The notes under the pieces were generated by a model. It worked only from the letters and a program-made list of their open reading frames with translations. It was not told the origin of the DNA and did not search any database. From an uncultured Candidatus Poseidoniales archaeon (GTDB lineage Archaea; Thermoplasmatota; Poseidoniia; Poseidoniales; Thalassarchaeaceae), in NCBI GenBank assembly GCA_964343205.1, contig CAYFID010000001.1, positions 10,835 through 74,834 on the forward strand: 64,000 nt of DNA. The letters are read 5' to 3'. Within the stretch, counting starts at the first letter, position 1. Each line of letters starts with the position of its first letter. Both the position numbers and the translations under genes were made by a program. This document shows, piece by piece, positions 2,033-20,768 of the stretch.

Positions 2033-2205
2033 TCGCACACCGTATTGCAATTTTCTCGTCTTGATGGATTTATCATGCTGATGGAGCGCCGTTCGGACAT
2101 AGATCTTTGTACCAATGTCCGAGAGTCACGCGTTATAAGAAAATCACTATAATTGGGGTCAAGATTATGGATTGTTTCAAAGGGTGTTTAGATTCGGGTT
2201 TTGTC

Positions 2206-3012
2206 ATGAGTCTGGGGATTACGCATCTTGGTTCGGGAAGCAGGGGCAATGCAACTCTAATCACTTCGGATGATTGCAATGTTCTAGTCGATTGCGGATT
2301 CAGCCTTAGACAGACAGAGAAGCGGTTGAAAATAGCAGATGTCGAACCAAAATCAGTTGATTCAATAGTAGTGACACATCATCACAAAGATCACTCGGGT
2401 TCTGCACTTCAAGCCTCTAAGAAATGGGGAGCTACACTTCACTGTAACCTAGGAACCGCCAAAAGAATGGATTGGAGGCCGATTGAAGAGTGTACTACAT
2501 TCGGAAATCTTGAGAGGGTAGAGTTCTCATCCAAGATGAGCATGCTAGCAATTCCAGTACCACATGATGATGCGGACAATGTGGCTTTAATTGCGAGCGA
2601 TGGAGGAGGCAATAGAGCTGCAATTGTGACAGATTTAGGTGAAGCGCCCAAGGATTTAATCACTCATCTTTCAAGTTGCAACCATATTTCCATAGAGGCA
2701 AATTATGACCATTCAAGATTGATGGGGGGCCCATATCCTGATTCCTTGAAAAGGAGGATCTCCGGTAGAGGGGGGCATCTCTCAAATGCTCAGACGGGGA
2801 GGATTCTTCGTGAGGTCTGCAATCGGGATCTGCAAAGTTTGGTACTCTGCCATCTATCAGAAAAGAACAACGCCCCTCATTTAGCAGAAAGCGAGGTCCT
2901 GCATGCAATTGGCGATGCATTCGAAGGTAACGTATCGATTTCTAAGCAATCAGGACCGGAGTTCAGATACTGGACCGGACAGACAGAGCCCAGCAGCATG
3001 GCGACTGCATGA
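2206..3012 (+). CDS. Metallo-beta-lactamase fold hydrolase
   Basis: HxHxDH motif VVTHHHKDHSG and an N-terminal GSGSRGNATLI..VDCG beta-lactamase-fold signature. The start was moved to the internal ATG at 2206 (MSLGITHLG); the upstream 33 codons of the ORF lack homology features. Confidence 0.75.
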   Translation: MSLGITHLGSGSRGNATLITSDDCNVLVDCGFSLRQTEKRLKIADVEPKSVDSIVVTHHHKDHSGSALQASKKWGATLHCNLGTAKRMDWRPIEECTTFGNLERVEFSSKMSMLAIPVPHDDADNVALIASDGGGNRAAIVTDLGEAPKDLITHLSSCNHISIEANYDHSRLMGGPYPDSLKRRISGRGGHLSNAQTGRILREVCNRDLQSLVLCHLSEKNNAPHLAESEVLHAIGDAFEGNVSISKQSGPEFRYWTGQTEPSSMATA

Positions 3013-5550: not shown

Positions 5551-5593
5551 CCCTCAGGCCCACTCAATAATGTTAGTAGCATCTGGCAGCAAA

Positions 5594-8500
5594 TCATTCT
5601 TGGAAATCGGGATCCGGTACCCATTCCTCCGTGGAAGAGTCCCAAAGCCACCCCGGATGGTCATCATACTTCTCAAGACTAGTTTCTTTCTCAATATTAT
5701 CCCCGTACCCTTCTGGGATCTCCACAGGAGTCTTCCGTAAGTCCTCATCCTCGATTTCGATTCCTACGAAACCGCTGAAGTAGGCTAGAGCGGTAAGAGC
5801 GAGGACTGCTGAGAATGCTAAAACAATGATCATCGACCAGTTAGTGGAAGAATCCACTGGTTCTCCCTTGCTAATTGATTCGACGGTGGTTGTCTGGCCG
5901 CCATATGTGAATTGGGGAGTTGAAGAGTCTCCCTTAATCCTTGATCCTGGAATACCCAACTCCCATGTTCCGTCTTCTAATACAAGGGTAGTAGCGACTG
6001 GGACGCCTCCGATTGATACCGTGACCTGCTTTCCAGGCAGTCCTACGCCGGAGTAGATGGCATATTCTTCTTCATCAAACCAATTCTTTTCGGGTTCCTG
6101 GATGTAGAACTCAAGAGGAACTACGCGAAATGTCACAGGGTCAGAGTTTGCCCTAGAGTCCCATGCATCTGTGGCAATGAAAATTACATTGTTAAGTGTC
6201 CATGACTCGATATTATCGTCGAAGAACTGCATGTCAGCTGGATCGTATCGTGCTACCCCATCAGTTCCTACACCGACAACCAGGGCATGGCGGTCGTCAG
6301 TGTTAATCGATGTGTCATTGTAAACAGAGATAAACTGGATGTCATTATCCAAATCAGAGAAGAAATCCTTTAGATCTATCTCAACAGTTGTACACTTGTC
6401 TACGGAATTTGACTCTGTGTCGCAATATAGTATAATTTCGTTTTCCCAGCCTGTTGAGTCGAATGTCGGTTGGTTATTTCCTGCGTTGGGTGGATTGTCT
6501 GCGGTAATTGTTACCTCCACCCAGCCACTGAAGTCTATCCCATCGTAGGATCTGAACCTTAGCAGATACTCAGCATCATGGCGTAACTCAGTAGTGTCCC
6601 ATTTCATTTCCCATTCGCCGTCTTGGGTGAACTCACCAATGCTCTGCTCGAATACTGTCACGTAGTCGTTTGAGACATCCTTGACTTCTAGATCGACCCT
6701 AGTAACGATCCCGTCGAAATCCCTCGCAACACCTTGCAATATGGTTTCAGTAGACGTAGAAATTCTGGTTCCGGAGTATGGTTGGTTGACGCTGATTGTG
6801 GGTTGACTGTTCCGGTTGTCTATGGTCAAAGTGAGTATGACGGGTTGGCACTCATCCGTGAATCCGTTGCAAAAGTCTGAGTCGGATGCCCAGATTGTGA
6901 ACGTGTATGTCGATAGGTCTCTGGGCCTAGATCCGAAGTCCCACGTCCATTCCCAAGTTCCGTCCTCGTTCGACTCAACTGGAGTGGTAACCTGGTAGTT
7001 CGGGCCCTCAATCAACATATACACCAAACCGATGTCTTTGTTGCATTCAGATGGGCAACCATATGGGTCCTGAGCATATCCTTCGAAAACCACTTCGCCG
7101 CTGTCGTGAGAAGAGAATGAGCTGGGTGAATTGACGAAAATACTTGGAGGCTGGGTGTTGAGTTTTATTGTCCTCGACACCACTGGACTGAAGTCTATCC
7201 CATCGTAGGATCTGAACTCAAAGGTATAGTCCCCTTCCCCTGCCAAACCGGTTAGATCTATTTCATAATACCATGTTCGGAAAGGTCGGTTGTGCCTAGT
7301 TACCTCTCCCTCGGAAGCACCGCTAGTGTCGATAGCAAGCTCTGCGTCCTCCCAAGAGCTTGTGAACGGGTTCTTCACTTGCACGGAGTGAACGTACCCT
7401 CCTTGGTCCCACTGAGCCAACTCGTCTGTGGCATAGCTGTTTGCCAACTGACCGTCATGGGCACTACCGGTGATGTTTACAACACGCCGGAAGGAGTGAC
7501 CATTATCTTGAGTAACCATCACCTTCGGTGCTACGTTCTCCAAGTGTGCAGTTTCCTGCAAAGAGGCCTCTTCTAGGGTGAATTCGCCATTATAGTACCC
7601 ATAACCGAACCTATAGGCAGTGTACCTGTAGAGGGACATCTCCCTGGTCCCAGCCGAGTAGTCGCAGCTTGGATCATTGGTGTCAATGACCAAATCTCCG
7701 TCATTGTCTATCCCATCAGAGCATGAGTCTTCGTACTCATCATCAGCGAATCCATCAGGATTGTCTCCGCCTCCGAGACCTCTGAAGTCAAGATGGAAGT
7801 TTGATGGTAGAGCAATCCAAGGAGTGAAGCCATCAGTTCCAGTGTTTACTCGGTACAGGTCGTTCCCCATAGCGTCCTCTACCAGTACCATAGCATCGCT
7901 TACCTTTTCACCGTTTATCAGAGCTTGAAATCTAACCAGCTCCGCCCTACTGACCTGGACGGCGAAGTGGGTGGGCTGAGTAGCAATCTTGACCTTTGAA
8001 AGATCAAGGTTAGTTAGGTCTGCGAAAGTGAACACTGTGGAGTTGTTATCCATGCTAACACCAAGAGGGAAGTTTCTGGGAGTCATGTTTTGACAATTGT
8101 TGCAGTCCTTAACCGGAGTGGGGATAATCGCCCCTTGGAAACCGTTCTCAGGCCATGCCTCTTGGTCTGGCCAATAAAGACGAACGGGATATTCTCCCGA
8201 CGGTGGAGAGGGTATGTACTCAGATTGGGCCGTTACTGAGCTCTTGGTGATGTTGTAAGTTGTCTCGACTTGGTGCCAGTCATTATCTGAGAAGTACCCC
8301 AGAGAGCCAAATTGCTGGGAATCTGAGTAACCGCTGTCATAATTCTTGATTACTGCTCCGGTCTTCGGGACGTCAAAGGAGTTTCTCTGTATATCGAGAA
8401 GAGACCCGATGGCCCTTATACCATCTGAACTTCCGCTAGCTGTAATGACATTGTCATACATTGTTACCCCCGTGACGTAGGCATGAACAACTGGACACGG

Positions 8501-9862
8501 GAATTGCCCGCCCCAGTGAGTATTGCTGTTGCAAGTCCCAGTTCCGTCATATGAAATGGAGTTGTTTGCTAGTAATACCCTCGATGCAGATCTCATCCCT
8601 CCACCAGAGTAATACCCTGCACTCACGGGAGTTAGGGTTGTCTCGAAAATTGAGTTGTTCTCTGCAACAACATCGAATGAGCCCACGAGCCAAAGTCCGA
8701 AGTAGCCGCCTACAGGCCCGATCGCGTTTTCGTGAATTTGTGCCTCGCTGTTGTAAATAACGATGCCTGACCCCCCACCAGCGCCTTCAATGTCGTTGTT
8801 CATCAGAGTAACTAATGCTCCTGCCGCTGCGTAAATACCATGACCCTCTACGGTTGTGATTTCGTTGTTGGAGACATCGAAACCGAAAGATGTCGAGCCT
8901 ACGGCCTTCTTTCCGTTGAAGTCCAAGCCGTTGCAGTTGACGTTCATCACAGTGTTTGTTACACTCCCTGCTGACGTCCAGAGGCCTATTCCGAAGTCTC
9001 CAGATAAGATCTCGGCGTTATCAATCTCTATGAAAGAGTCCTCGGCCCAAATCGTGGCCCTTCCACCATCACGATTACCGCATCCATTATCTGTCCCAGT
9101 TAATGTGATGTCGGATAGCAAGAATGGGCTAACTGAAGAGCCAGATGAGTAGATTTGTAGTGCTGCTCCAACTATGCTTCTACTCTCATCCACCCCAACG
9201 GCGAATTGGCCTCCATTGAATGTCGGCTGGGCTAGATTAGTTGTTAGCACGCTTGAAGTGTTTACCTGGCTGAAAGATAACTCGGTGAGAGTGGGGCTAG
9301 CCCCGTCAAGAACGAGTGCCGCGTAGCGGAACTCCCCTACTGCTGAGATGTAATGCGGAACTCCCCACGCACCCTCGAACGAAACGTACCTCAACTCAGT
9401 CTGGGACAGATCGATGGAGCTCCTCATTAGAATGCCCTCATTGCAGGAAGGATCATCGATCCAAATCTCCTGATTGCCATAGCTCATCCCATAGCATTCC
9501 CCTGTTGCACTTCCGTTCTCAGGGTCCTGCCATGTTAGAGTGATTTGCATCGCAGGGCCCCCGTTGGAGGAGGCGCCACAAGATGAGGCCCCGGCACAAA
9601 GGCTCCCGCGAACATCAAGGTGAGTCCCGTTCTGGAAGACAATAGTTGCTCCGGGATTGATGATCAGCTTAGCCCCGGGTGCAACAGTTACGTCGCCCGA
9701 GAGGGTGTGGACTCCGGCCCAGGTTTCTGTTCCGGTAATGGTGCCCTGGGTGGTTTCGTTTGAAGCAATGGCCGTGCCGGCGGGCAAAGCAAGCGAGAGT
9801 AAAATACTGAGCAAAAATAATGCCGTCAATGAAAGGGACCTTGGTCTTCCGTCCCGCGCCAT
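5594..9862 (-). CDS. Cell-surface protein with a right-handed parallel beta-helix (pectin-lyase-fold) region and Ig-like domains. Signal peptide plus C-terminal TM anchor with an acidic tail.
   Basis: Signal MARDGRPRSLSLTALFLLSILLSLALPAGTAIA; the start is probably the ATG at 9862 rather than the ORF start at 9913. Beta-helix repeat signatures NNSI, NNDIEG and GIVIYNSEAQIHENAIG. C-terminal TM MIIVLAFSAVLALTALAYFSGFV followed by an acidic tail. Confidence 0.7.
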   Translation of the reverse strand: MARDGRPRSLSLTALFLLSILLSLALPAGTAIASNETTQGTITGTETWAGVHTLSGDVTVAPGAKLIINPGATIVFQNGTHLDVRGSLCAGASSCGASSNGGPAMQITLTWQDPENGSATGECYGMSYGNQEIWIDDPSCNEGILMRSSIDLSQTELRYVSFEGAWGVPHYISAVGEFRYAALVLDGASPTLTELSFSQVNTSSVLTTNLAQPTFNGGQFAVGVDESRSIVGAALQIYSSGSSVSPFLLSDITLTGTDNGCGNRDGGRATIWAEDSFIEIDNAEILSGDFGIGLWTSAGSVTNTVMNVNCNGLDFNGKKAVGSTSFGFDVSNNEITTVEGHGIYAAAGALVTLMNNDIEGAGGGSGIVIYNSEAQIHENAIGPVGGYFGLWLVGSFDVVAENNSIFETTLTPVSAGYYSGGGMRSASRVLLANNSISYDGTGTCNSNTHWGGQFPCPVVHAYVTGVTMYDNVITASGSSDGIRAIGSLLDIQRNSFDVPKTGAVIKNYDSGYSDSQQFGSLGYFSDNDWHQVETTYNITKSSVTAQSEYIPSPPSGEYPVRLYWPDQEAWPENGFQGAIIPTPVKDCNNCQNMTPRNFPLGVSMDNNSTVFTFADLTNLDLSKVKIATQPTHFAVQVSRAELVRFQALINGEKVSDAMVLVEDAMGNDLYRVNTGTDGFTPWIALPSNFHLDFRGLGGGDNPDGFADDEYEDSCSDGIDNDGDLVIDTNDPSCDYSAGTREMSLYRYTAYRFGYGYYNGEFTLEEASLQETAHLENVAPKVMVTQDNGHSFRRVVNITGSAHDGQLANSYATDELAQWDQGGYVHSVQVKNPFTSSWEDAELAIDTSGASEGEVTRHNRPFRTWYYEIDLTGLAGEGDYTFEFRSYDGIDFSPVVSRTIKLNTQPPSIFVNSPSSFSSHDSGEVVFEGYAQDPYGCPSECNKDIGLVYMLIEGPNYQVTTPVESNEDGTWEWTWDFGSRPRDLSTYTFTIWASDSDFCNGFTDECQPVILTLTIDNRNSQPTISVNQPYSGTRISTSTETILQGVARDFDGIVTRVDLEVKDVSNDYVTVFEQSIGEFTQDGEWEMKWDTTELRHDAEYLLRFRSYDGIDFSGWVEVTITADNPPNAGNNQPTFDSTGWENEIILYCDTESNSVDKCTTVEIDLKDFFSDLDNDIQFISVYNDTSINTDDRHALVVGVGTDGVARYDPADMQFFDDNIESWTLNNVIFIATDAWDSRANSDPVTFRVVPLEFYIQEPEKNWFDEEEYAIYSGVGLPGKQVTVSIGGVPVATTLVLEDGTWELGIPGSRIKGDSSTPQFTYGGQTTTVESISKGEPVDSSTNWSMIIVLAFSAVLALTALAYFSGFVGIEIEDEDLRKTPVEIPEGYGDNIEKETSLEKYDDHPGWLWDSSTEEWVPDPDFQE

Positions 9863-9940
9863 ATGCCTTGGACTCCATCCAGCCAATTTAACCATAGGGA
9901 CGACGAGTATCATCCTTAAGCATAGATTTCGATAGGAAAA

Positions 9941-11176
9941 CTACTCAATCCCTAATTCGAGAGACACTTGGTTGGACCACTCTAAGGCATCTAGAAGGCC
10001 GTAACCGGACTTTGAGTCGTGGGTGGAGGCTTGGTTGGATGCTGGTCTTGCAGAATTTGCCAGGGCCACCTTGACTAAATTCATTTCCTGCTGGTCAATT
10101 ATTCCATCTTCACCGGAAATCGACTCACCGTGGATGGAGAGAATCAAAGCAAGTGCCCCTGCGACGATCACTGTTGAGTCGCTAGTTCCCGTGGAGTAAG
10201 CGTATGGGGGCTCTCTGTCGTTAGAGATACAAGACCAAAGTAATACACCGGGAGCTAAAATCTCTGGCTTCTGATTGGGGAAAGAGCGGTCTTCTCCCGT
10301 TTCTGGATCTATGGGGGATCCTTTCGCGCTGTCCCCCCATGGATTACCACCTTTGTCATGGGCACCTACAGCGATAACACCTGGAAGACTAGCCGGTGTA
10401 GAAACATCAGTATTGTTGGATTGAGGATCGCTGTTACCTGCAGCTGCTACGACAAAAATTCCATCATCTAGGGCCTCTTGAACTGCTTCTACGGTCTCTG
10501 ACGTGGAAGTAACTCCCGACCCAGGTTGGCTTCCTAGGCTCAAGGAGATAACATCGGAACTCTGTGAGATCCTGCACCATCTGATAGCCTGCGAAACCAT
10601 CCTCTCGTTTCCCGACTTTCCGTCCGGCCCAAGAGCTATAGCGACAGAGAGGGAGACTCCGGGAGCTGCTCCCCTGTAAGTCCCATTAGCTACAAGCAGT
10701 CCAGCCATCAGAGTACCGTGGCTATCGTATCCGATGTCTCTAATCTCATCGTTCTCTTCTAGGTAGAAATCTCGGAACCCATGTAGTTTCAACATGGAGA
10801 AGTCGGGGTGGGAGATATCTATGCCAGTGTCGACTATACATACGCGAATACCTTCACCAAGAGTTCCGGTCGATTGTAGGCCCCTTATGCCGCTATCCTC
10901 GTATGCCCATTCAGAATCTGGTAGTACTTCACCGAGTAGCGGCGCTATAGAGGGGTATAACATGATGAACGACAATATAATCGCCGAGAATCCTACAGCA
11001 CCCCATGGCCAGAGGAACCTGACAATCGGACCCATTGGCCACCTGAGTTCCCTGGCTTCCTTGTCGCTGATACCATAGGCTTCCCCCGGATATCCGGGTG
11101 CATCGCTGTCGACGGCAGTCAAGAGGCTAGGATCTTCGGGTTCTGGCATTAGTTCCAAGTGCTGGATTCCCCTCAT
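9941..11176 (-). CDS. Subtilisin-like serine protease (peptidase S8) with an N-terminal membrane anchor
   Basis: Catalytic triad motifs in order: Asp in VCIVDTGID, His in HGTLMAG, Ser in GTSDSTVIVAGALAL; oxyanion Asn in AAAGNS. N-terminal hydrophobic segment FLWPWGAVGFSAIILSFIMLY. Confidence 0.8.
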   Translation of the reverse strand: MRGIQHLELMPEPEDPSLLTAVDSDAPGYPGEAYGISDKEARELRWPMGPIVRFLWPWGAVGFSAIILSFIMLYPSIAPLLGEVLPDSEWAYEDSGIRGLQSTGTLGEGIRVCIVDTGIDISHPDFSMLKLHGFRDFYLEENDEIRDIGYDSHGTLMAGLLVANGTYRGAAPGVSLSVAIALGPDGKSGNERMVSQAIRWCRISQSSDVISLSLGSQPGSGVTSTSETVEAVQEALDDGIFVVAAAGNSDPQSNNTDVSTPASLPGVIAVGAHDKGGNPWGDSAKGSPIDPETGEDRSFPNQKPEILAPGVLLWSCISNDREPPYAYSTGTSDSTVIVAGALALILSIHGESISGEDGIIDQQEMNLVKVALANSARPASNQASTHDSKSGYGLLDALEWSNQVSLELGIE

Positions 11177-11211
11177 GGCCGATCCCCTAAATAGCGCTGT
11201 TAGTGTTAGTA

Positions 11212-14200
11212 TTAGAACGGGGCGCTAATTCTTCTTCCAGGCCTTCTAGTGAAGTATAGTAAAGCAACTAATAGTAGGATGATGAAAACATATGCCATGT
11301 ACTTGAGATTGTCATTATCCACTGAAGCCGCCCACAATTGTGCCTCGTAGACACACGAAGCCTGGCCTTCGGAGAGAGAGTTGCATGCCTCGATTTCTTC
11401 TAATGGCTCGCCTTCTATTTCGAACATGATGTAATACTTCTTTGACTCTTCGAACTGGGTGTAATCCATGTTGATGAAGAAGGCTGATTCGCTCATTGCG
11501 AAAACCGAGCCGGAGGAGCTGGAATTGACTCCAACCTTAGTCAGGCATTTGATATCCTCGCAGAGTGTGGCAAGAAGGGTTACGGTTTCTGCGTCAACAT
11601 TTCCGGAGTTTGAGATGTTAACCGAATAAGTCTCGATTCCTCCATAGCTGGCGAAAGAGCCTCCAAGGAGTCGTACTGATTCCCCTACAATCGATAGAGA
11701 AGGGGCGTCCAAAACTATAGTAGCTTGGAATGGATATGAGTTGTTTGATGAGTCAGTAACCGAGAAGTGAATGGTTTCTGTGTAGTCACTGAGTAGTTCT
11801 TGCTCCGAAACAGGGACTAGGGTGAATGTAGACAGACCATCCGTGAAAGGTGAAACTGGCTGGGTCATTGGACCTGAGACTTCCCAATAATCGGAGTTCT
11901 CGAATTGGAAGTAGAATGTCTCGTCGGCGTTTCCTAGATTCTTGAACGGGACCTGAAGTGGCACAATACTATCACTTGGAGAGAAATATACAATCTCTTG
12001 GAATTCCTCGGAAAGCTCTATTCCAGATGTTTTCGGTATGCCCACGGTCAACTCCGTCTGCGTCGAATATCCTTGGATCGTTGAAAATTTAACTAGGACC
12101 ATATGACCTTCGGGGAAGTGGTGGGCAACGCTACTGTTTGCTGGTGTAACCCTGACATTGATAGTCGAGGTTTCTACATTCTCTAGGCCCATGTCGAAAG
12201 AAATTGACTCCTGCCAGTCGCCGGTTGAGTTCTCGAATTCGACCTTCCAGAAGATTCCATCCATTCCAGGTACTGTACCCGTAACCACGTATGTGTCGAA
12301 GGAGTTGTGCCCTTCATAATCAATACTCAATGTGAATTGAGCAACCTCATATTGGCAGTCTTCCAAGCAATCTGAGTCCGCCAGTACTACGTCTATTCTA
12401 GGTTGTGAGGAGGTTGAAACGGCTATGTCTTGCTTTGAAACCCTCTCTATGCTGAGTGTCTTCACTGGAGTGTCTTGGCCAGCTCTGATAGTGACTCCTT
12501 GCCCGCCAGAGTAAGTAACGTTCCTGCCATCCTCATCGAGATCAAACTCACTTGAAATTTGTACAGTTCCAGTAACAACGAGCAACGATAGAGTGCCGTC
12601 CTGGTTCAATTGCTCAGACCAGGACATGCTGCCGAATTCGACTACTAGATCGTAGTCTTCTATCTCGGAAAGTTGGTGCTCCGCTCCGTTGAAGTCTATC
12701 CACTTGGTGTCTAAATTCAAAACCCCACCTATCGTTAGTTCGGATTCTATCGATGCGCCTTCGACACCTACCTCCAAGGGGGAAATCGAAATCAGATTTT
12801 GGCAATCTGAAGATTGGGCGTCTGTATATGCATATACAACCCAACTACCTGGTTGAACGGATGAAACCCATCCTCCGGTCCAAATAGAGGAGTTACTAGT
12901 CTTGATGACAGTGACTCGGTCACGGGAAATTCCATGCGTCGGTATTAGGACAACCTCCCAATCACCGTTTGAGATGCAAGCCTGGTCCGGGTAGGAAACA
13001 TGTCCCGAGACTTCAACCTCGCCTGCAGTGATTTCGATATCTTCAACCACAGATTCGTTACCCAATTCTACTGACAGAGTAACATTTCCGAATCCTTCCC
13101 TAACTACGAATAGGTCCCAAGAACTCTGTGCAGGGAGGAATGTTGACCATTCCCCGGTGGAACCAGTCACCAATTCATGAGTAGGGGGTGCAAATCCGGG
13201 ATTTTCTGAAGAGAGGTTGACCGTCGCGTTACCTAGGCCTTCGAAGAAACCGGGAGAGTCGTCGTCGTCTAAGTCCCAGAAGACCCGACCACTTAGTTGA
13301 ACCAGCCTCTGCACCGATAGAGTAACTTGGTGGTCCACTCCAACAGTTACCCCTGAGTCGACTAGCGAGGTGTTCTCGAGTAACATCCTGATGCCGTCTG
13401 GGTTGGTCTCATTCATCTCAACGTTCCACTGTCCAGGAGTAAATCTGACCTCCAGAGGCAGCCCTAATCCAAAGTATTGCGTAGAGAAGGAACCTAGTCC
13501 CTCTTGGGATGTGAAAGTGAGTTCCATCATCTCCAGATCGGGACCTCCCCCTGTACTGGAATTCAACTCGATGGTGACGGTTGCTAGTTGTGAAGTATAG
13601 AAATCGTATGTGCTATCAGCTGTGGACTTGGAAACAGAGATTGCCCTTCTCAAGCCTTCGTGAACTCCTGAATTGCTCTCAAATTCATCGATGATGACCA
13701 CCCATTCACCTTCGCTGATGTAATCCACAATCCGCCCATTCTCATCGGTAATGAAAGTCTGAATCCATCCGCTATTAGTGTCTAGCATTGTGACTTGGTG
13801 GTTCACCAAAAGATCCGCACTCTCGTTCCTGAATGTTATGTTTACCAGCCAAAGAGGCTCGAAACCGACGGATCTATTGATTTCAGATGGGTCTAGCCCG
13901 ACGTCGAAAATCTTGTTTATGTCGTATAGAGTATCGAAGAGTTCTCCGGCGGAGGAGTTTGCTCTGTCGACTACAATCCTGTACTTTCCTGGCTCCAGAG
14001 AGACCTGTGCCCTTCCATCAGAAACCCATTCTTGGCCGTCTAGACTGACTGAGTAGCCCGACCCGTTAGAAGTAAGAGGCTTGATCTGGAATGGGTATGA
14101 TACGGGTGTTCCGTTGGATACGTTGTTTTCTCCATCGTGGTCTATGAAAAAGTCGATATTCACGGTACTGTTTTCCTCTGGAATGATAAATAGCTCTATG

Positions 14201-17200
14201 TCCACCGAGGAGTTGATCTCACGGATTACAGAGCTTGATCCCATTTCACCTGCATCTAGTGTGAAGGACCAGTTCCCGAGGGGCAGTAGCATCTCGAACC
14301 TACCAAGTTCGTCGACCTCGACCCGCCAGACGGAGTCAGTATTTCCGTCCATGTTGTTTGCATGAGCATAAACAGGACGCCATCCCGAGAAGCCCTGGTT
14401 GTACGTGTTTCCTTCTCTGTTGAGGCTAGCACTTCCGAAGATTACCATGGCATTCCTAAGTTCGATGCTGATGTCGTCCATTCCCTCTGTGACTTGGAAC
14501 CTTGTCCCATTAGACATGAATCCACCTGCTCCAACCATCCTCTCAACTGTGGCGTCCACGAAGGCCCCAAGAGGGAGGATTACACTGAAGTTCCCATTTG
14601 AGTCGGTTGTTGAAGCAAGAGAGAATCCACCCCATTGGAATGTAATGTCCTGGAACGCCACAGGGCCTCTGGAAGTTTGCAATTCGGGAGAGTCCTTGTT
14701 GGAACTATCTATCACACTTCCATTAACAACTTGGCTAACAAGGAACTCGAATGAGGAGTTGATATCCTCGGTGCCTACACTGATTCGTTGCCATAGTTGC
14801 TTTTCTTCGTTAAGGGTGTGGTTCAAGACCCAAATTCCTGGTGAGAGTTCGGCAAAATATGATCCAGAAGTGTTGTCGAAGGATACGCTCACAGGTTCTA
14901 TAGATTGGTTCTCGGATCGGAATTTCAATTCTAGATTCTCGACGCTTTCATCTCCATCTGTGAGGGTGAATGTGATGTCAGAGGTCTGTGGTACTACAGA
15001 CGGGAATGCTGCAAGTATGTCTTGGTCTGATTCGAAGATGTAGGTCTCCGAAATCTCTGGGAATCCATCATCGTCCACGTCCACCTGGACTAGATATGAA
15101 CCGGGGATTATGGGTCCAATCTCGAATGATCCATCTTCCTCAGGAAGAACGGAGCATGGGGGAGAGACAACAGTGCTACATTCGTGCAGAAATTCTTCTG
15201 AAGAACTGTTGATTGGGAGAATAATGAGCTCACTTGAAAGTGGGTCTCCTGAGTGAAGGGAGACAGCTCCCTTGACGGCTCCACCGGAAATTGATACAGG
15301 AATCTGAGAGTTCGATGGATTTAGAGGGATCTGGAAATATTCACTCAGTTCTACAACAATGCCACCTCCAAAGTCTACAGATACAGAGTATTCCCCAGGT
15401 AGGGCGTCAACAATATGGAAAGAACCCGGACTGACCATGGGGCCACTGAAAACCCCATCTCCAGAGAATGTTCCTGATCCGTTTATAGTGCCGTAGGAAT
15501 CAAGGTTTTGGGATGAGTCTGTTACGAATGTTCCGGATCCGATGAAGGTAGCTTGGAATAGGCTTCTTGTGTATTCGCTGACACCTTCAGAGGTAAATCT
15601 CCCAGATGCGTTTAACGTGCCGTTGACTAGGTAGATTCCATCATCAAAGGAACATGCTTGAGAGCCGTTCGGTACCTCGTTATCCATACATTCTGGGACA
15701 GTGTCGGAGATTTCCCCCTCTAGCGTCCCGCGACCTGTGAATTGTCCGTCACCGGCAATACTGTGGTTGTCGTATATTGTCTGGGTGTGGGTACCTGTGA
15801 ATTCGCTTACTGAGGCAGCCCCCTCGGAAACTACTGTACCATTGCCATAGAATGTAACCTCTCCGAGACCAGTGAATCTCAGAGATTCGCCCTCTAAGCT
15901 CCCATTAGAGGTTGAAGTCACATAGGGCTGTATCGTGATCTCATCTGAGGTCGGCGTGAGTATCATGTCTGCTGAGAGAACTGGTTCACCATCGAAGTCA
16001 AGTTGGCCTGACCATGAAAGTACCCCTGATGCAGCGGAAGGTGAAACGGTGATTGAAGCATCAATTATCGATTGTCCGTTACTGTGACCATCTGTGCGAG
16101 AAATGTTAACTATCGTATGGGTGAGCCAAGTGGACCCGTAGACGTTTCCTAGAATCCCAGTCACTGGATTTACATTCCTGTTCTGCGGATCCTCTGTGAA
16201 GAGCTCACTCATCGCATAGCCCATTCCCGTCATAATCGAGGTTCTCGCTTCTTCCAAGTCGGTTTCTCCTGAGAATGCAGAAACTCTAATCTTGCCAGAC
16301 GGGACGGTGAAGGAGAATTTCCCATTCTCATCTGCTTGGGTGCTTCCTATAGGGATCCAGAATGTCCTAGAGTCGCGGTCAATTACATTTCCTTCCAAAT
16401 CCACATCCTCTTCCCCACTGAAGGCATCCCTCTCTATCAGCAGCCTAGCGTTGGGTACGGGTCCGATCCCATCAAGAGTTACAGTGCCCTCAACTGTTGC
16501 ACCGCTGTAGTATTTCAGAATCTTTACGAACCTGTTGGAGTCGTACACAGTACCGCAATACTGATCCAGCTTCGCCCCTGTCTCGTTAGTTTCACAATGG
16601 GCACCATCAGTGGGATCGTACCAATTAGAAATCACGAAATGGTTCATCATGGCGCCGGGTAGTGACATAGCACCCTCCAGGTAGCTTCCGGGGGATCCTG
16701 AAAGAGCACTTGGAGCAATCCACGCTGAAGGGGAGTCTGCATCGCCAGCAATTCCCCCTGGAGAGTCGAGGCCAAGAGAGGATGTCCCGTAACCTACGTA
16801 GGCTCTAGCAACCATGGTTTCGAAGAACTCGGCGGAATGCTGGTATTCGATATCGTTGATTGCAATCATTTCATCTGCGGTTGATGCTCCTGATGCCTGG
16901 GATCTAATATCCTCCAGATAGCTTGCCTGATATTCATCGGAGGTCATCATTCCCTGGTTTGTCTCGTATGTTGTGGTAATGTATGTGTCAAGGTCCAGTC
17001 CAGACAAATGAGTAGGTGCGTGGAAGATTCCAGTTGTTTGGCCTCTGTGGTAGCTCTGATAATCCGCGTTATACTTGCCACCCAGAGGATAAAGCCTGTT
17101 GTCAACAGCGAAATATCGAATCTCGTGGTTCCTAGTTGTAATGCCACCCTCGTAATCTGTCACTTCGTATGTGTCAATAGAGGAAATTCCATCATAAATA

Positions 17201-20200
17201 TCCACAAGTTCGTTAAGTTCGAATGCAGTAATCAAGAAAGCTCGCATCATCCCGAACTTTGCATTGGCCCTGTGTAGCCCGGTCGAGATGTCGTAGTAGT
17301 CCTCGAAAAGGTCTTTTGTGTATCTATATCCACCCATGTCATAGTGACTGGGATCTTCCATAATTTCGTATGATGAGGATGATCCTCTTGCCTCGTCGAA
17401 AAGTGACTTTGCAGCAGATTCGTTCGTGCTTGGTTCTCCGTAATTCTCACCATCCTTCAAAACTAGCCAGACCTCGTCAGTTTGAGGTATTCCGTTATTG
17501 TCCAGCAAGTGACCATGGAGTAGTTCGGTTGAGCCATATACCGCCTGTAGTGCCATTGTCCTGTCCATAACAAACTGTCTACAACTATCGCAATTACTAT
17601 TCGAGATGATTGCAGAGAATTCTTCAATCTGTTCTTCCGTCATTGAGGACTCCAGAACAACTCTGAAATCTTCGCTCATCTCTCCACCATTCAAGTTTCT
17701 ATCACCTAAAGCAAGCGTGGCAATGAACAAAGATAGTGTGTCCTCCTGACCTGCCGATAATAGCATAGCTCCGCTATTTGGTATGCCTGATTGGAAGTTA
17801 TCAGCAACGGTCGGATGTTGCCCCGAAGTAAGTGCTTGGAAACCATAATCCCACCAAGAGACAAATGCCGGTCTTTGGCTGAACGGAGTAGAATTATCCT
17901 GCTTCGACAGCCAGTCGTAGGCTTCATTCCATCCTTGTGTGTTGAAGCTAGGGCCGAATGTCCCCATGTACCAATGCCCAGTTTCAAACGGTTCGTACGG
18001 ATTGCTGTTCATCACAGAAAACAGGTTGAAGAAGTCCTGCCTAAGGATGTCTGGAGCGATGTCATATATACTCTGGTCAACTTCATAGGCGGACTGCTCG
18101 CCCCTCGGGATTCCAGAGTCTATTCCGTAAGTGGCATGCTGAGAGCTGATGAGGAGAAGAACCAGAATCATTGCTGGAACTCCAGGTCTTGACTTGGTAG
18201 CAGGCCAGAGAGATCTGAATCTTGTTCTCGGAGTTCCAATTCCTGAGTTCCTCCATACCTTGGAAAACGCTGAGAAGTTTGAGCTCCCCCATAGCATCGA
18301 GATGCCTATCCCGCCAGCTACTGCCATGGGTGGGGTCGCGTTGATTATGAAACGGCCAGCGGTCCATGCCATGTAGGTTGCGATAATGGTCCAAAGGCCT
18401 AGTAGAGTGAGACCGGACTTGCTCTTCCTGCTTCCCCTCCAAAGAAGAACGAAGGAGCACCCTATTGCTATCAAGGCTACAATAGGTCCGTACGAAGCGA
18501 ATAGAACACCTCTGTCGGGAGCCTGTGCCTCTCCGATGGTACCGAAGATCTTGTTCTTAGAGAAATAGAAACCTCCGGTGAAAAGAATATCCCAGCCAGC
18601 GTAGATTTCTGTAACCTGAAGTAAAAACAGTAGGGCCAGAATGGTACCAAAAAGTGCCGAACCCCCCATTACAACCAGTAGCCAGGGCTTATCTCTGAAG
18701 GAGCTAGATACCCATCCCACTGCGAATGTGAAGCCGATAATGTAGAACATTGGTTGCATTCCACTTGGCGCAAATAGAAGGTTCATTCCGGGCCAAGCAT
18801 AGAATGGGATGGGGATGATGATTGAAGAAATCATCATCTGAAGAGCCGCGGAAGTGAATTGTAAGCTGTCCTTTCTACGGAAAATGTTGACTGCCACTTG
18901 GAATGAGTATGCTAGGAATAGTATTCCAGGCCCATATACGAATCCCTTCCAACCCAGAGCCATCACTGCGAAGGCTATTCCGGACATGGTTGCGTTTGCC
19001 ATTAATGCAGGATTTCGCTGCCATGTGTCCCTCATTCCAGCCAGTATGTACAAGGGATTTGTACTGGTCTTCTCAAAGACCTCCTTGTGCTCTAGATTTT
19101 CAAGGGCCCTCATCCAGAAATAGAACGCAATTGCAAGGAACAACATCGCGAAGGAGTCGTGATCCGACATTGCGAATGTTGACCGGCTCATGTGTCCGGG
19201 CATCAGTGCTATCAGCCAAGCCGCGAAAATTCCCGAACGCTTGCTGTGAGCCCTTGTCGCGATTCCTGCGATTGGGAGTACGATCAGTGCACCGTATATT
19301 GCTGGGAGGGCGGACATTGACCACCATACTGCTTGGTCCGGTGAGATCTCTAGTAGCCAAGAAAGCGCGAGAGCGCCTAGTGCCAGAGACCACGAGAAAA
19401 GGGGTGGCCTCGGGTTAATGCCCCCTGAGGGGTAAGCCCTATCATGATCGAAAATTAAGTGGCTTCTTTCGGCGATTACGTAGTCCACGACCCGTTTCAT
19501 ATACCATGGGTCAGACCCGCCAGTCATGTCCCAAAGACCAGTTCCAGAGGCATTCATTGCTGGAATGACATTCCATGCCGTCCTGACAACGAGTGCGACA
19601 ACGAATGCAAGAGACACCATCATGATGTAGGAGTTCTCGTCCCACCAAGTCCGGAATCCGCTTCTATCCCTTCTAGGGGCAATGTCACCGAAGGCCCCTC
19701 TTGATGCGAAGAAGATTGCGAAGAAGTTCAGCCAGAAACCAAGGAAAAACCAGGTAAATGATCCAATGAAGCCTGTCTCAGAGAATAGAGAGGGAAGCTC
19801 ATTTCCAATCTCGTGGAGGTGCCCAATAGTGTATAAAATCCAGTTTATTGCCAGCATAGAGCTTAGCACATGCCACCCCTCTGCCCTGAAAAACGAAAAT
19901 GTAAGTACTACGAAAGCCGAGAAAAGTGCCCATACCACTCCGAGATGGCTTCCTTGAGCGAATTCGGCGAGGTCGCTAATCTGCCCCACCCAAATCACAG
20001 GTATTAGGAATCCTATGAATATCAATGAGGGATATGCCAAGACTTCCTTGTTTTCAGTAAATAGTGGAATCCTGGAAAACAGCGACCCAGTGCTCCTCTC
20101 TTCCAGAGTCCCCCGAAGCAAAATCATTACCACAAAACCCAAAGAAATCGAAGCAAGCCAGAATGAGAAGAATGCACTCCCTAATGAGGCCCTTTGAACG

Positions 20201-20688
20201 TCCAATAGGGCTGAGGATGCGGATTGGGCAATTCCTAGGTGAGCCCCATAGAACCCGGCGAGTCGAATCCCCAGTATTGTGGAGAGGAAAACTGAGGATG
20301 CTTCAAATTTCCCAGATTCATGCAGAATCGCAGTTCCCAAACCTATGATCACAAATGTTGCAACGAACATGTTGTCGAAATTTGATGGATCGGACCAGTT
20401 CGCGACTAGTGAAATAACCAGAAGAGTAATGGAAAGGGAGATAACTCTCATTGTTCCAGAATTGATAGGGATTATTGATGTTGACCTGCCTGCGCAGGCT
20501 GGCAACATCGCAGAAAAAGTAATCAGAATGGATGCGGAAATGTACTCGCTGTCAACTTCTCTTCCTTCTAGTTGAGAAGCAGCAATCAGCAGCCCCAGCA
20601 GGGAAAGTGAGATTGCGATAGGCACTCCCATTCTGGATACAAATTGGCTATCCCCAGATGCTTCAATCTCAGTTTCCATCCCATCCAC
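11212..20688 (-). CDS. aglB: Giant (3158 aa) AglB/STT3 oligosaccharyltransferase fusion. Extra N-terminal polytopic membrane domain, STT3 catalytic core, and a roughly 1900-aa extracellular beta-domain extension ending in a C-terminal TM.
   Basis: STT3 EL1 motifs DPWYMKR (about 19505) and FDHDRAYP..NPRPPLF (about 19441), which match eukaryotic STT3 DPYFNYR and FDDRAWYPLGR. WWDYG motif in PAFVSWWDYGF (about 17846). DK-like motif TVADNFQSGIPNSGAMLLS downstream. The C-terminal extension contains carboxypeptidase-regulatory-like and Ig-like repeats and ends with the TM YMAYVFIILLLVALLYF. Confidence 0.85.
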   Translation of the reverse strand: MDGMETEIEASGDSQFVSRMGVPIAISLSLLGLLIAASQLEGREVDSEYISASILITFSAMLPACAGRSTSIIPINSGTMRVISLSITLLVISLVANWSDPSNFDNMFVATFVIIGLGTAILHESGKFEASSVFLSTILGIRLAGFYGAHLGIAQSASSALLDVQRASLGSAFFSFWLASISLGFVVMILLRGTLEERSTGSLFSRIPLFTENKEVLAYPSLIFIGFLIPVIWVGQISDLAEFAQGSHLGVVWALFSAFVVLTFSFFRAEGWHVLSSMLAINWILYTIGHLHEIGNELPSLFSETGFIGSFTWFFLGFWLNFFAIFFASRGAFGDIAPRRDRSGFRTWWDENSYIMMVSLAFVVALVVRTAWNVIPAMNASGTGLWDMTGGSDPWYMKRVVDYVIAERSHLIFDHDRAYPSGGINPRPPLFSWSLALGALALSWLLEISPDQAVWWSMSALPAIYGALIVLPIAGIATRAHSKRSGIFAAWLIALMPGHMSRSTFAMSDHDSFAMLFLAIAFYFWMRALENLEHKEVFEKTSTNPLYILAGMRDTWQRNPALMANATMSGIAFAVMALGWKGFVYGPGILFLAYSFQVAVNIFRRKDSLQFTSAALQMMISSIIIPIPFYAWPGMNLLFAPSGMQPMFYIIGFTFAVGWVSSSFRDKPWLLVVMGGSALFGTILALLFLLQVTEIYAGWDILFTGGFYFSKNKIFGTIGEAQAPDRGVLFASYGPIVALIAIGCSFVLLWRGSRKSKSGLTLLGLWTIIATYMAWTAGRFIINATPPMAVAGGIGISMLWGSSNFSAFSKVWRNSGIGTPRTRFRSLWPATKSRPGVPAMILVLLLISSQHATYGIDSGIPRGEQSAYEVDQSIYDIAPDILRQDFFNLFSVMNSNPYEPFETGHWYMGTFGPSFNTQGWNEAYDWLSKQDNSTPFSQRPAFVSWWDYGFQALTSGQHPTVADNFQSGIPNSGAMLLSAGQEDTLSLFIATLALGDRNLNGGEMSEDFRVVLESSMTEEQIEEFSAIISNSNCDSCRQFVMDRTMALQAVYGSTELLHGHLLDNNGIPQTDEVWLVLKDGENYGEPSTNESAAKSLFDEARGSSSSYEIMEDPSHYDMGGYRYTKDLFEDYYDISTGLHRANAKFGMMRAFLITAFELNELVDIYDGISSIDTYEVTDYEGGITTRNHEIRYFAVDNRLYPLGGKYNADYQSYHRGQTTGIFHAPTHLSGLDLDTYITTTYETNQGMMTSDEYQASYLEDIRSQASGASTADEMIAINDIEYQHSAEFFETMVARAYVGYGTSSLGLDSPGGIAGDADSPSAWIAPSALSGSPGSYLEGAMSLPGAMMNHFVISNWYDPTDGAHCETNETGAKLDQYCGTVYDSNRFVKILKYYSGATVEGTVTLDGIGPVPNARLLIERDAFSGEEDVDLEGNVIDRDSRTFWIPIGSTQADENGKFSFTVPSGKIRVSAFSGETDLEEARTSIMTGMGYAMSELFTEDPQNRNVNPVTGILGNVYGSTWLTHTIVNISRTDGHSNGQSIIDASITVSPSAASGVLSWSGQLDFDGEPVLSADMILTPTSDEITIQPYVTSTSNGSLEGESLRFTGLGEVTFYGNGTVVSEGAASVSEFTGTHTQTIYDNHSIAGDGQFTGRGTLEGEISDTVPECMDNEVPNGSQACSFDDGIYLVNGTLNASGRFTSEGVSEYTRSLFQATFIGSGTFVTDSSQNLDSYGTINGSGTFSGDGVFSGPMVSPGSFHIVDALPGEYSVSVDFGGGIVVELSEYFQIPLNPSNSQIPVSISGGAVKGAVSLHSGDPLSSELIILPINSSSEEFLHECSTVVSPPCSVLPEEDGSFEIGPIIPGSYLVQVDVDDDGFPEISETYIFESDQDILAAFPSVVPQTSDITFTLTDGDESVENLELKFRSENQSIEPVSVSFDNTSGSYFAELSPGIWVLNHTLNEEKQLWQRISVGTEDINSSFEFLVSQVVNGSVIDSSNKDSPELQTSRGPVAFQDITFQWGGFSLASTTDSNGNFSVILPLGAFVDATVERMVGAGGFMSNGTRFQVTEGMDDISIELRNAMVIFGSASLNREGNTYNQGFSGWRPVYAHANNMDGNTDSVWRVEVDELGRFEMLLPLGNWSFTLDAGEMGSSSVIREINSSVDIELFIIPEENSTVNIDFFIDHDGENNVSNGTPVSYPFQIKPLTSNGSGYSVSLDGQEWVSDGRAQVSLEPGKYRIVVDRANSSAGELFDTLYDINKIFDVGLDPSEINRSVGFEPLWLVNITFRNESADLLVNHQVTMLDTNSGWIQTFITDENGRIVDYISEGEWVVIIDEFESNSGVHEGLRRAISVSKSTADSTYDFYTSQLATVTIELNSSTGGGPDLEMMELTFTSQEGLGSFSTQYFGLGLPLEVRFTPGQWNVEMNETNPDGIRMLLENTSLVDSGVTVGVDHQVTLSVQRLVQLSGRVFWDLDDDDSPGFFEGLGNATVNLSSENPGFAPPTHELVTGSTGEWSTFLPAQSSWDLFVVREGFGNVTLSVELGNESVVEDIEITAGEVEVSGHVSYPDQACISNGDWEVVLIPTHGISRDRVTVIKTSNSSIWTGGWVSSVQPGSWVVYAYTDAQSSDCQNLISISPLEVGVEGASIESELTIGGVLNLDTKWIDFNGAEHQLSEIEDYDLVVEFGSMSWSEQLNQDGTLSLLVVTGTVQISSEFDLDEDGRNVTYSGGQGVTIRAGQDTPVKTLSIERVSKQDIAVSTSSQPRIDVVLADSDCLEDCQYEVAQFTLSIDYEGHNSFDTYVVTGTVPGMDGIFWKVEFENSTGDWQESISFDMGLENVETSTINVRVTPANSSVAHHFPEGHMVLVKFSTIQGYSTQTELTVGIPKTSGIELSEEFQEIVYFSPSDSIVPLQVPFKNLGNADETFYFQFENSDYWEVSGPMTQPVSPFTDGLSTFTLVPVSEQELLSDYTETIHFSVTDSSNNSYPFQATIVLDAPSLSIVGESVRLLGGSFASYGGIETYSVNISNSGNVDAETVTLLATLCEDIKCLTKVGVNSSSSGSVFAMSESAFFINMDYTQFEESKKYYIMFEIEGEPLEEIEACNSLSEGQASCVYEAQLWAASVDNDNLKYMAYVFIILLLVALLYFTRRPGRRISAPF

Positions 20689-20739
20689 CGAACCTAGTTA
20701 CCTTCAACCTAGCAGCGCGGCGACCCAAACGCTTGTTTT

Positions 20740-20768
20740 AACCGTTCGTAGAACGGTTGCAATATAGG
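20740..20768 (-). promoter_or_regulatory. Candidate promoter/operator of the aglB block. TATA-like box (minus strand CCTATATT, 20760..20768) abutting a perfect 8-bp inverted repeat AACCGTTC-gta-GAACGGTT (20740..20758).
   Basis: The inverted repeat was read directly from the sequence. It lies about 50..70 nt upstream of the aglB ATG (20688), between the TATA-like element and the expected start-site position. Confidence 0.4.

Follow-up and report, generated by a model that had tools for sequence, protein, structure and literature searches.

This study concerns a gene block in a 64-kb stretch of DNA (64,000 nucleotides of contig CAYFID010000001.1, called the window below) from a Poseidoniales (Marine Group II, MGII) archaeon of the MGIIb family Thalassarchaeaceae, where four co-directional minus-strand open reading frames (ORFs) of 3158, 411, 1439 and 845 aa lie downstream of purD. 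Pfam searches identified STT3, AglB_core and CarboxypepD_reg in the 3158-aa ORF, Peptidase_S8 (E 1e-37) in the 411-aa ORF, Beta_helix and Big_7 in the 1439-aa ORF, and AAA_16 and TPR in the 845-aa ORF, which also gave a MalT-like NCBIfam match. These matches agree with a preceding interpretation of the bare DNA letters (the sequence-only reading), which had named an AglB fusion, an S8 protease, a beta-helix protein (BH) and a STAND regulator and had placed their co-directional minus-strand ORFs correctly, the STAND ORF downstream included. The aglB start was assigned to the conserved ATG at 20679, which has GGTGGA 5′ of it, instead of the GTG at 20688 (product 3155 aa), and the STAND start to the ATG at 5541 rather than the TTG at 5550 (product 842 aa). 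BH most likely starts at the ATG at 9862, M18 of its longest ORF, giving a product of 1422 aa; this ATG is invariant in a 20-sequence alignment, the stretch before it shows no conservation at the protein level, and P0121, an identical gene call in public data, likewise has 1422 aa. Because the conserved BH start lies at 9862, the S8-BH spacer is 78 nt long (9863..9940), and the 27-nt gap (9914..9940) of the sequence-only reading had arisen because the longest ORF was taken; the 35-nt gap that it gave between aglB and S8 was correct. The genes of the block are as follows.

11212..20679, minus strand: giant AglB, 3155 aa (Pfam STT3, NCBIfam archaeo_STT3, AlphaFold2 (AF2) model of residues 1-1060)
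11177..11211, minus strand: aglB-S8 spacer, 35 nt, with a Shine-Dalgarno (SD)-like GGGGAT at 11187-11182
9941..11176, minus strand: S8 subtilase, 411 aa (Pfam S8, alignment to subtilisin BPN′, hydropathy)
5594..9862, minus strand: BH protein, 1422 aa (Pfam Beta_helix and Big_7, AF2 model)
3013..5541, minus strand: STAND regulator, 842 aa (Pfam AAA_16 and TPR_12, NCBIfam MalT)

The conservation of this block was assessed at 163 loci, comprising 80 species-representative genomes, whose loci were fetched with the S8 protein as query, and 83 metagenome contigs (80 loci for which aligned S8 orthologs, the most distant ones, served as query, and three further ones). Gene order was scored by tblastn with the window proteins, and the counts are restricted to loci with enough contig room. 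The set covers both families of the order, with MGIIb, MGIIa-like lineages and a lineage of 67% guanine plus cytosine (L163); the S8 proteins of the MGIIa-like lineages share 36-43% identity with that of the window, and one such cluster (P0246) is named Poseidoniaceae. The order purD>aglB>S8>BH>STAND was found wherever the contig reaches, with aglB immediately 5′ of S8 in 138/138 loci, BH 3′ of S8 in 150/150 and STAND after BH in 121/121. For BH, tblastn detected 147 of the 150, and the three missed loci have an ORF of 1433-1498 aa carrying the BH N-terminus and tail motif. The same order is seen in the annotation table of an MGIIb O1 metagenome-assembled genome (MAG; PMC9723583 supplementary file 4), and the eggNOG seeds MG2_1284, 1283, 1281 and 1279 show it in the original MG-II reference genome. 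The synteny that the sequence-only reading had suggested checking is thus strong, and deeper than expected. Three non-orthologous S8 relatives (P0255, P0259 and P0262) had no aglB or BH neighbours, on contigs so short that they carry little weight either way. Full-text literature searches found no paper discussing this gene block.

Public annotation of the orthologs is poor: BH is unannotated, Prokka labels STAND as FtsY and purD as pyruvate carboxylase subunit A (PMC9723583 supplementary file 4), and the giant AglB, searched for with the AglB core, is represented in a large protein collection by gene calls that are mostly incomplete or fragmentary.

Such a fixed order could reflect inherited collinearity without functional coupling, in which S8 would be nutritional, BH an adhesin and STAND an unrelated regulator, all on a stretch of chromosome that is rarely rearranged. 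This explanation appears unlikely, though it is the most serious competitor of the one preferred here. In its favor, purD, which is functionally unrelated and has no plausible envelope role, is equally conserved in position 5′ of aglB, and adjacency alone is therefore no proof of shared function. Against it, synteny between the families breaks right after STAND, whereas the four-gene block is intact in the 121-150 informative loci. The gene that follows STAND, o2107, is conserved only within MGIIb (81/108), and the position after STAND marks the downstream synteny boundary.

2107-3012, plus strand: o2107, convergent gene after STAND, annotated in an orthologous MAG as metallo-beta-lactamase-fold or RNase BN-like

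The o2107 ortholog is absent from the flank of STAND in MGIIa-like loci, and L081 and L082 have three other genes between STAND and this ortholog.

Archaeal promoters are compact, and short spacers are therefore no evidence of co-transcription; since they are uninformative, comparative footprints were examined. A scan with sigma-70 promoter and rho-independent terminator models, which are bacterial and unsuited to archaea, gave no enrichment, and the comparative footprints were used instead. T-runs were measured as T4+ within 40 nt 3′ of the stop codon among unique loci and compared with a coding control (10%). They followed purD in 60% of the unique loci, S8 in 40%, ~4-fold over the control, and STAND in 25%, whereas they were at background level after aglB (14%) and followed BH in 12%; this contrast holds in MGIIb and MGIIa-like loci separately. 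The S8-BH spacer also carries a conserved promoter-like box, and in the 20-sequence alignment of this spacer the only invariant columns are the TTA[A/T]AT core and the ATG 26 nt 3′ of it, while the remainder is not alignable (consensus CCCTATGGTTAAATC). A box-to-ATG spacing of ~26 nt is canonical for leaderless archaeal mRNA. Consistently placed TATA-like hexamers were found 5′ of BH at -30..-21 in 58% of MGIIb loci, and no positional enrichment of such hexamers was observed before S8 or STAND among the loci compared. The footprints at the S8-BH and BH-STAND junctions of the window are listed below.

9937..9940, minus strand: TTTT run that follows the S8 stop without a gap and looks like an oligo-T terminator of archaea
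9883..9899, minus strand: putative BH promoter box CCCTATGGTTAAATTGG, with its TTAAAT core at 9891-9886, ~26 nt before the ATG
5561..5576, minus strand: conserved box CTAACATTATTGAGTG in the BH-STAND spacer, alignment consensus ACnAACATTnTTGARTGA at -38..-22 before STAND

These footprints bear directly on the model of the sequence-only reading, in which one operon, transcribed from a single candidate promoter 5′ of aglB, encodes a maturation module with a glycan-cleaving beta-helix enzyme. The co-directional genes, their short spacers in the window and the conserved promoter-like box 5′ of aglB are in line with it, but the 27-nt gap is a start-codon artefact, the S8-BH spacer, 78 nt after correction, is longer in MGIIa-like loci (92-223 nt) and longer still in L163 (409 nt), and this spacer contains a second TATA-like box, an invariant one, together with enriched T-runs. 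That reading had itself held that an internal promoter or terminator would speak against one unit. Therefore, the trio aglB-S8-BH is a conserved cluster but does not look like one transcription unit, and the single-operon model is very improbable. As the best reading, the pattern suggests two units, aglB-S8 and BH-STAND, within which further internal promoters are possible. For inherited collinearity the footprints point both ways: the separate promoter-like boxes of aglB and BH and the terminator-like T-run between S8 and BH favor it, whereas the lack of terminator-like signals within aglB-S8 and BH-STAND and the partial overlap of BH with STAND argue against it. The BH-STAND spacer measures -17 to 66 nt in MGIIa-like loci, with overlaps (-17 to 0 nt) in several of them, and the CTAACATTATTGAGTG box within it is unlike the TATA-like boxes of aglB and BH. 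In the aglB-S8 spacer neither a T-run nor an order-wide conserved box was found, and the regions upstream of S8 contain only clade-specific AT-rich elements and G-rich SD-like motifs.

The promoter-like boxes of aglB (20736-20743) and BH (9886-9893) have the heptamer GGTTAAA in common on the minus strand, and two of the three occurrences of GGTTAWAW in the 64-kb window are these two boxes, which hints that the two promoters may be related or co-regulated. A shared operator of the two promoters was considered and rejected, as they have only this heptamer in common. The main text of PMC5069720, an mdRNA-seq study of MG-II, gives no MG-II promoter consensus.

Upstream of aglB, the candidate promoter CTATATT (20767-20761) proposed by the sequence-only reading is not the conserved element, which is the box GGTTAAAACA at 20743-20734. 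Of the MGIIb loci, 83% have a TATA-like hexamer 5′ of aglB at -70..-61, and of the MGIIa-like loci, 40% have one at -80..-71; at other positions such hexamers are nearly absent. With the transcription start placed from the TATA spacing, the aglB transcript would carry a 5′ leader. The features of this region are as follows.

20734..20743, minus strand: conserved aglB TATA-like box GGTTAAAACA, ~59 nt before the ATG
20680..20733, minus strand: predicted aglB 5′ leader, with a hairpin at 20712-20694 and an SD-like GGTGGA at 20689-20684
20740..20758, minus strand: palindrome AACCGTTC-TAC-GAACGGTT, read from the sequence and abutting the aglB TATA-like box

In the orthologs, a small hairpin and a GGTGA-type SD motif likewise follow the box. 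The hairpin lies at the same position in orthologous leaders (L028-L159) and takes the form xAGCC-NNNN-GGCTx; its outer pairs vary between C-G, G-C and U-A, and three loci have U-A in place of the inner C-G. A hand-anchored alignment of the leaders gave a core of 4-5 bp with some compensatory pairs, a moderate support because the sequences were preselected for the hairpin. RNAalifold on the raw MAFFT alignment found no structure because the hairpins are misaligned in it, and a search of the leader against Rfam gave no relevant match. A cis-regulatory role of this RNA hairpin in the mRNA of the giant AglB is conceivable. The palindrome is perfect and is present only in the closest clade of orthologous loci; it could be a candidate operator, perhaps for the putative winged helix-turn-helix (wHTH) region of STAND, or mark where the purD transcript ends. 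Immediately 3′ of the aglB TATA-like box there is a third half-site, GCGTTC, and GAACGGTT half-sites showed no enrichment within the 64-kb window.

In situ transcription was read from the per-gene normalized coverage values of SIMO Bin 19-2, the MGIIb O1 MAG mentioned above, in samples FN66 and FN71 (PMC9723583 supplementary file 4).

purD ortholog: FN66 0, FN71 0.08
aglB ortholog: FN66 0.35, FN71 0.38
S8 ortholog: FN66 0.18, FN71 0.16
BH ortholog: FN66 0.16, FN71 0.18
STAND ortholog: FN66 0.19, FN71 0.18
ortholog of the gene after STAND: FN66 0.01, FN71 0.05

The four block genes are expressed in situ at similar levels, unlike both flanks, which argues against collinearity without coupling. 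The per-gene values are compatible with one transcript or with several, and the similar coverage of S8, BH and STAND is a point in favor of the single-operon model.

The giant AglB consists of ~350 aa of extra N-terminal transmembrane helices, an STT3/AglB core, a ~2100-aa extracellular extension, a C-terminal transmembrane helix and a basic tail. The catalytic motif WWDYG lies at aa 942 (window 17842-17856), DPWY at aa 390 and DHD at aa 506; D390, P391, D506, H507 and D508 are invariant in the ortholog alignment, and DPxY and DxD were matched to the GT66 catalytic loops by sequence pattern only. All 79 of 79 full-length orthologs span 3097-3297 aa and have WWDYG, DPxY and DxD. The AF2 model of residues 1-1060 (predicted local distance difference test (pLDDT) 68, predicted template modelling score (pTM) 0.72), in which the soluble domain is poorly modelled, retrieved A. 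fulgidus AglB as the best Foldseek match (E 1e-9), followed by STT3 and PglB. Residues 1-350 (window 19630-20679) form ~ten extra transmembrane helices in the model (pLDDT 80-94) and have no Pfam match. The ~2100-aa extension gives weak transthyretin-like (CarboxypepD_reg) matches and is rich in N-x-S/T sequons, with 48 against 24 expected in the window and a median observed/expected ratio of 2.06 in the orthologs. The C-terminus (window 11215-11250) is a basic stretch with a terminal Phe, its last residues reading ...RRxSAPF, and this Phe is found in 113/115 unique termini.

Compared with known oligosaccharyltransferases (OSTs) of the AglB/STT3 type (GT66; A. fulgidus AglB-L, PDB 3WAK and 7E9S), the protein has the same GT-C core and the same WWDYG, DPxY and DxD motifs, but its length is ~3.5-fold that of the A. 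fulgidus AglB chains with solved structures (793-867 residues), and it differs from A. fulgidus AglB in its extra N-terminal helices, its sequon-rich extension, its second membrane anchor and its basic, Phe-terminated tail. Among genomic precedents, the nearest is the archaeosortase A/PGF-CTERM system, where an OST gene is linked to a surface-glycoprotein peptidase; here, the peptidase is a serine S8 enzyme rather than an archaeosortase. TIGR04154 (archaeosortase A-associated AglB) was the best NCBIfam match of the giant AglB, which missed its cutoff (157 bits vs 450), and neither AglB nor BH matched a PGF-CTERM model or showed a PGF motif when the C-termini were read directly.

The S8 protein has a cytoplasmic N-terminal peptide, a single transmembrane helix at aa 55-84 and then the catalytic domain; it has no I9 prodomain, the protease sits within ~20-30 residues of the membrane, and only ~30 residues separate the membrane helix from the catalytic Asp. 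It aligns to subtilisin BPN′, with the motifs VDTGID at aa 115, SHGT at aa 152, AAAGN at aa 244 and GTS at aa 330, and the D, H, S and oxyanion N are invariant in nine divergent orthologs, down to 39% identity. The N-terminal peptide of the window protein reads PEPEDP...LTAVD (window 11129-11146), and PEP...[S/T]A[V/I]D was found in 136/136 unique N-termini. Its best NCBIfam match was mycosin (TIGR03921; E 2e-30), below the cutoff of that model (106 bits vs 278). Like the mycosin MycP of type VII secretion, S8 is a prodomain-less, membrane-tethered S8 protease within a membrane-machine cluster; its anchor, however, is N-terminal where that of mycosin is C-terminal, the host is archaeal, and the block contains no type VII secretion system genes. 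The closest functional analogy is tetrabrachion/STABLE of Staphylothermus marinus, in which a subtilisin-family protease accompanies giant glycosylated anchored archaeal stalks, and this protease has been proposed both to mature the precursor of the stalk and to serve peptide feeding (PMC5744192). In contrast to that system, S8 has its own N-terminal anchor, no coiled-coil stalk is evident, and the association is genomic and not structural. The view that the genes are merely collinear draws on the usual interpretation of MGII peptidases as protein degraders or nutritional exoenzymes (PMC9723583, PMC5069720), while the seat of the catalytic domain directly on the membrane, a poor position for foraging, speaks against it.

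BH is a type-I membrane protein with a Sec signal peptide. It contains a right-handed beta-helix (~aa 30-560) together with an acidic disulfide/Ca-type motif and Ig-like domains, and a transmembrane helix (aa 1342-1367) leads to its cytoplasmic tail. The confident AF2 model of residues 30-720 (pLDDT 87, pTM 0.87) is all-beta and contains the right-handed beta-helix, and Foldseek retrieved only weak matches to generic beta-helix proteins with it (E ~1e-5, template modelling score up to 0.47, 8-16% identity), none of which points to a specific family of lyases or hydrolases. Lyase or hydrolase activity of BH is therefore neither supported nor excluded, and the lack of a specific match counts against the glycan-cleaving enzyme of the single-operon model. 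The right-handed parallel beta-helix is a fold that BH shares with phage tailspikes, the AlgE4 epimerase, PL6 alginate lyases and adhesins, and the Pfam Beta_helix match is above cutoff; what sets BH apart from these proteins is the setting of the domain, in a membrane protein of type I that also has Ig-like domains and a conserved tail in the cytoplasm. The family is restricted to the lineage: only 150 homologs reach E<=1e-5 in a collection of 5.8 billion proteins. The tail (window 5597-5659) ends in HPGW[L/M/I]WD-x4-5-W[V/I]PDP in 97/104 unique tails (HPGWLWD....WVPDP in the window), with DPYAWAK as an additional tail motif in MGIIa-like loci. The conserved cytoplasmic peptides of AglB, BH and S8 look like docking motifs for a cytoplasmic partner, and their presence on all three membrane proteins is a further point against collinearity without coupling.

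Near the block, two more minus-strand genes encode surface proteins of 2991 aa (33336-42311) and 984 aa (42389-45343) with a signal peptide and a C-terminal anchor. The former contains 79 N-x-S/T sequons against 30 expected, and the tail of the latter has an EKYDD motif in common with the BH tail. Both probably serve as substrates of AglB and may be part of one surface system with the block.

STAND comprises a putative N-terminal wHTH-like region, a NOD ATPase (Pfam AAA_16, 38 bits, cutoff 32.6) and a TPR sensor (TPR_12, 61 bits). Conservation within the block is highest for this protein, with 49-53% identity between families versus 34-43% for the others. Residues 172-487, the NOD, are homologous to P. 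horikoshii PH0952 (6mfv; E 2e-28), whereas residues 20-70 gave a weak HTH_Crp_2 match (E 9e-4, 19.6 bits) below the cutoff of 27. PH0952 is a MalT-related TPR-sensor STAND with an N-terminal ArsR-like effector, and MalT is kept inactive by the membrane-associated MalK (PMC6468293). STAND resembles the MalT/PH0952-type regulators in its NOD ATPase and its TPR repeats, and in architecture its putative N-terminal DNA-binding-like region corresponds to the ArsR-like N-terminus of PH0952, but it differs from them in being fixed beside a giant-surface-protein gene, with which it is probably co-transcribed. An anti-phage role was considered and set aside: PADLOC assigned STAND, S8 and BH to no defence system and gave only generic TPR and subtilase matches, and such a role is unlikely because the locus is core and fixed.

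These properties raise the possibility of a transmembrane signalling device, in which BH would be a surface sensor whose tail, possibly together with the AglB and S8 tails, is bound by the STAND TPR, coupling envelope or glycan status to transcription either by a MalK/MalT-style sequestration or by regulated proteolysis with S8 as the site-1 protease. The apparent co-transcription of BH and STAND, overlapping in several lineages, the PH0952/MalT-type sensor with its MalK precedent (PMC6468293), the order-wide cytoplasmic short motifs, terminal Phe included, and the palindrome abutting the aglB promoter all favor this explanation. The ~1300-aa ectodomain is, however, large for a sensor, TPR ligands are not predictable from sequence, and the wHTH assignment is weak, and we regard the device as improbable as an explanation of the whole block.

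From the observed gene identities, topology, gene order, promoter and terminator footprints and in situ transcription, our leading though tentative interpretation is that the block is an order-wide envelope gene cluster of the Poseidoniales, built of two adjacent transcription units whose products cooperate; in short, an OST-centred surface-protein gene cluster. In unit 1, a conserved TATA-like box would drive, through a structured leader of ~50 nt, the giant AglB and then S8, the latter with an SD-like motif and no terminator-like signal before it. In unit 2, a box of its own at leaderless distance would drive BH and STAND, again with no terminator-like signal between the genes, which overlap in some lineages. 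The three membrane proteins, all predicted to hold their bulk on the outer face, may together build and maintain a glycoprotein coat. AglB would glycosylate proteins, its own extension included, and this ~2100-aa stalk would be re-anchored by the C-terminal helix; S8 would be a membrane-proximal processing or shedding protease acting on stalk proteins such as the AglB extension; and BH would be a structural or glycan-binding surface component. STAND, through its TPR, may read the short cytoplasmic peptides of AglB, S8 and BH, with BH and STAND communicating across the membrane. A shared envelope function of the block is plausible. That its products are coupled, physically or functionally, on what S8 acts and what BH does are what we infer from this arrangement. 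In the same way, the glycoprotein maturation or remodelling role put forward by the sequence-only reading is a reasonable hypothesis.

Several observations weigh against this interpretation. The promoter and terminator calls are sequence footprints rather than mapped transcript ends; the ~2-fold drop in coverage from aglB to S8 fits partial termination or a separate promoter, the clade-specific AT-rich boxes before S8 could be additional promoters, and the CTAACATTATTGAGTG box could be a weak internal promoter, and thus a possible extra one, or an RNA signal. BH shows no sequon enrichment (observed/expected 0.90) and no specific enzyme family, MGII peptidases are customarily seen as nutritional, and purD is as firmly in place as the block itself. 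A more ambitious version, an envelope assembly-and-sensing system in which AglB is a self-glycosylated stalk cut by S8, and BH and STAND are a signalling pair that reads the cytoplasmic peptides and feeds back on the two GGTTAAA promoters, would join most of these elements and is of low probability.

The Poseidoniales, an uncultured order, rank with the most abundant archaea of the plankton, and to our knowledge nothing is known experimentally about their cell envelope. For archaea more generally, the locus illustrates that short spacers need not mean operons where mRNAs are leaderless. Concrete, testable targets are offered by the conserved promoter-like boxes, the hairpin in the aglB leader and the peptide motifs on the cytoplasmic side. 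The cell surface governs particle attachment, virus recognition and protein foraging, and this never-broken block is the best available handle on how Poseidoniales build and monitor it.

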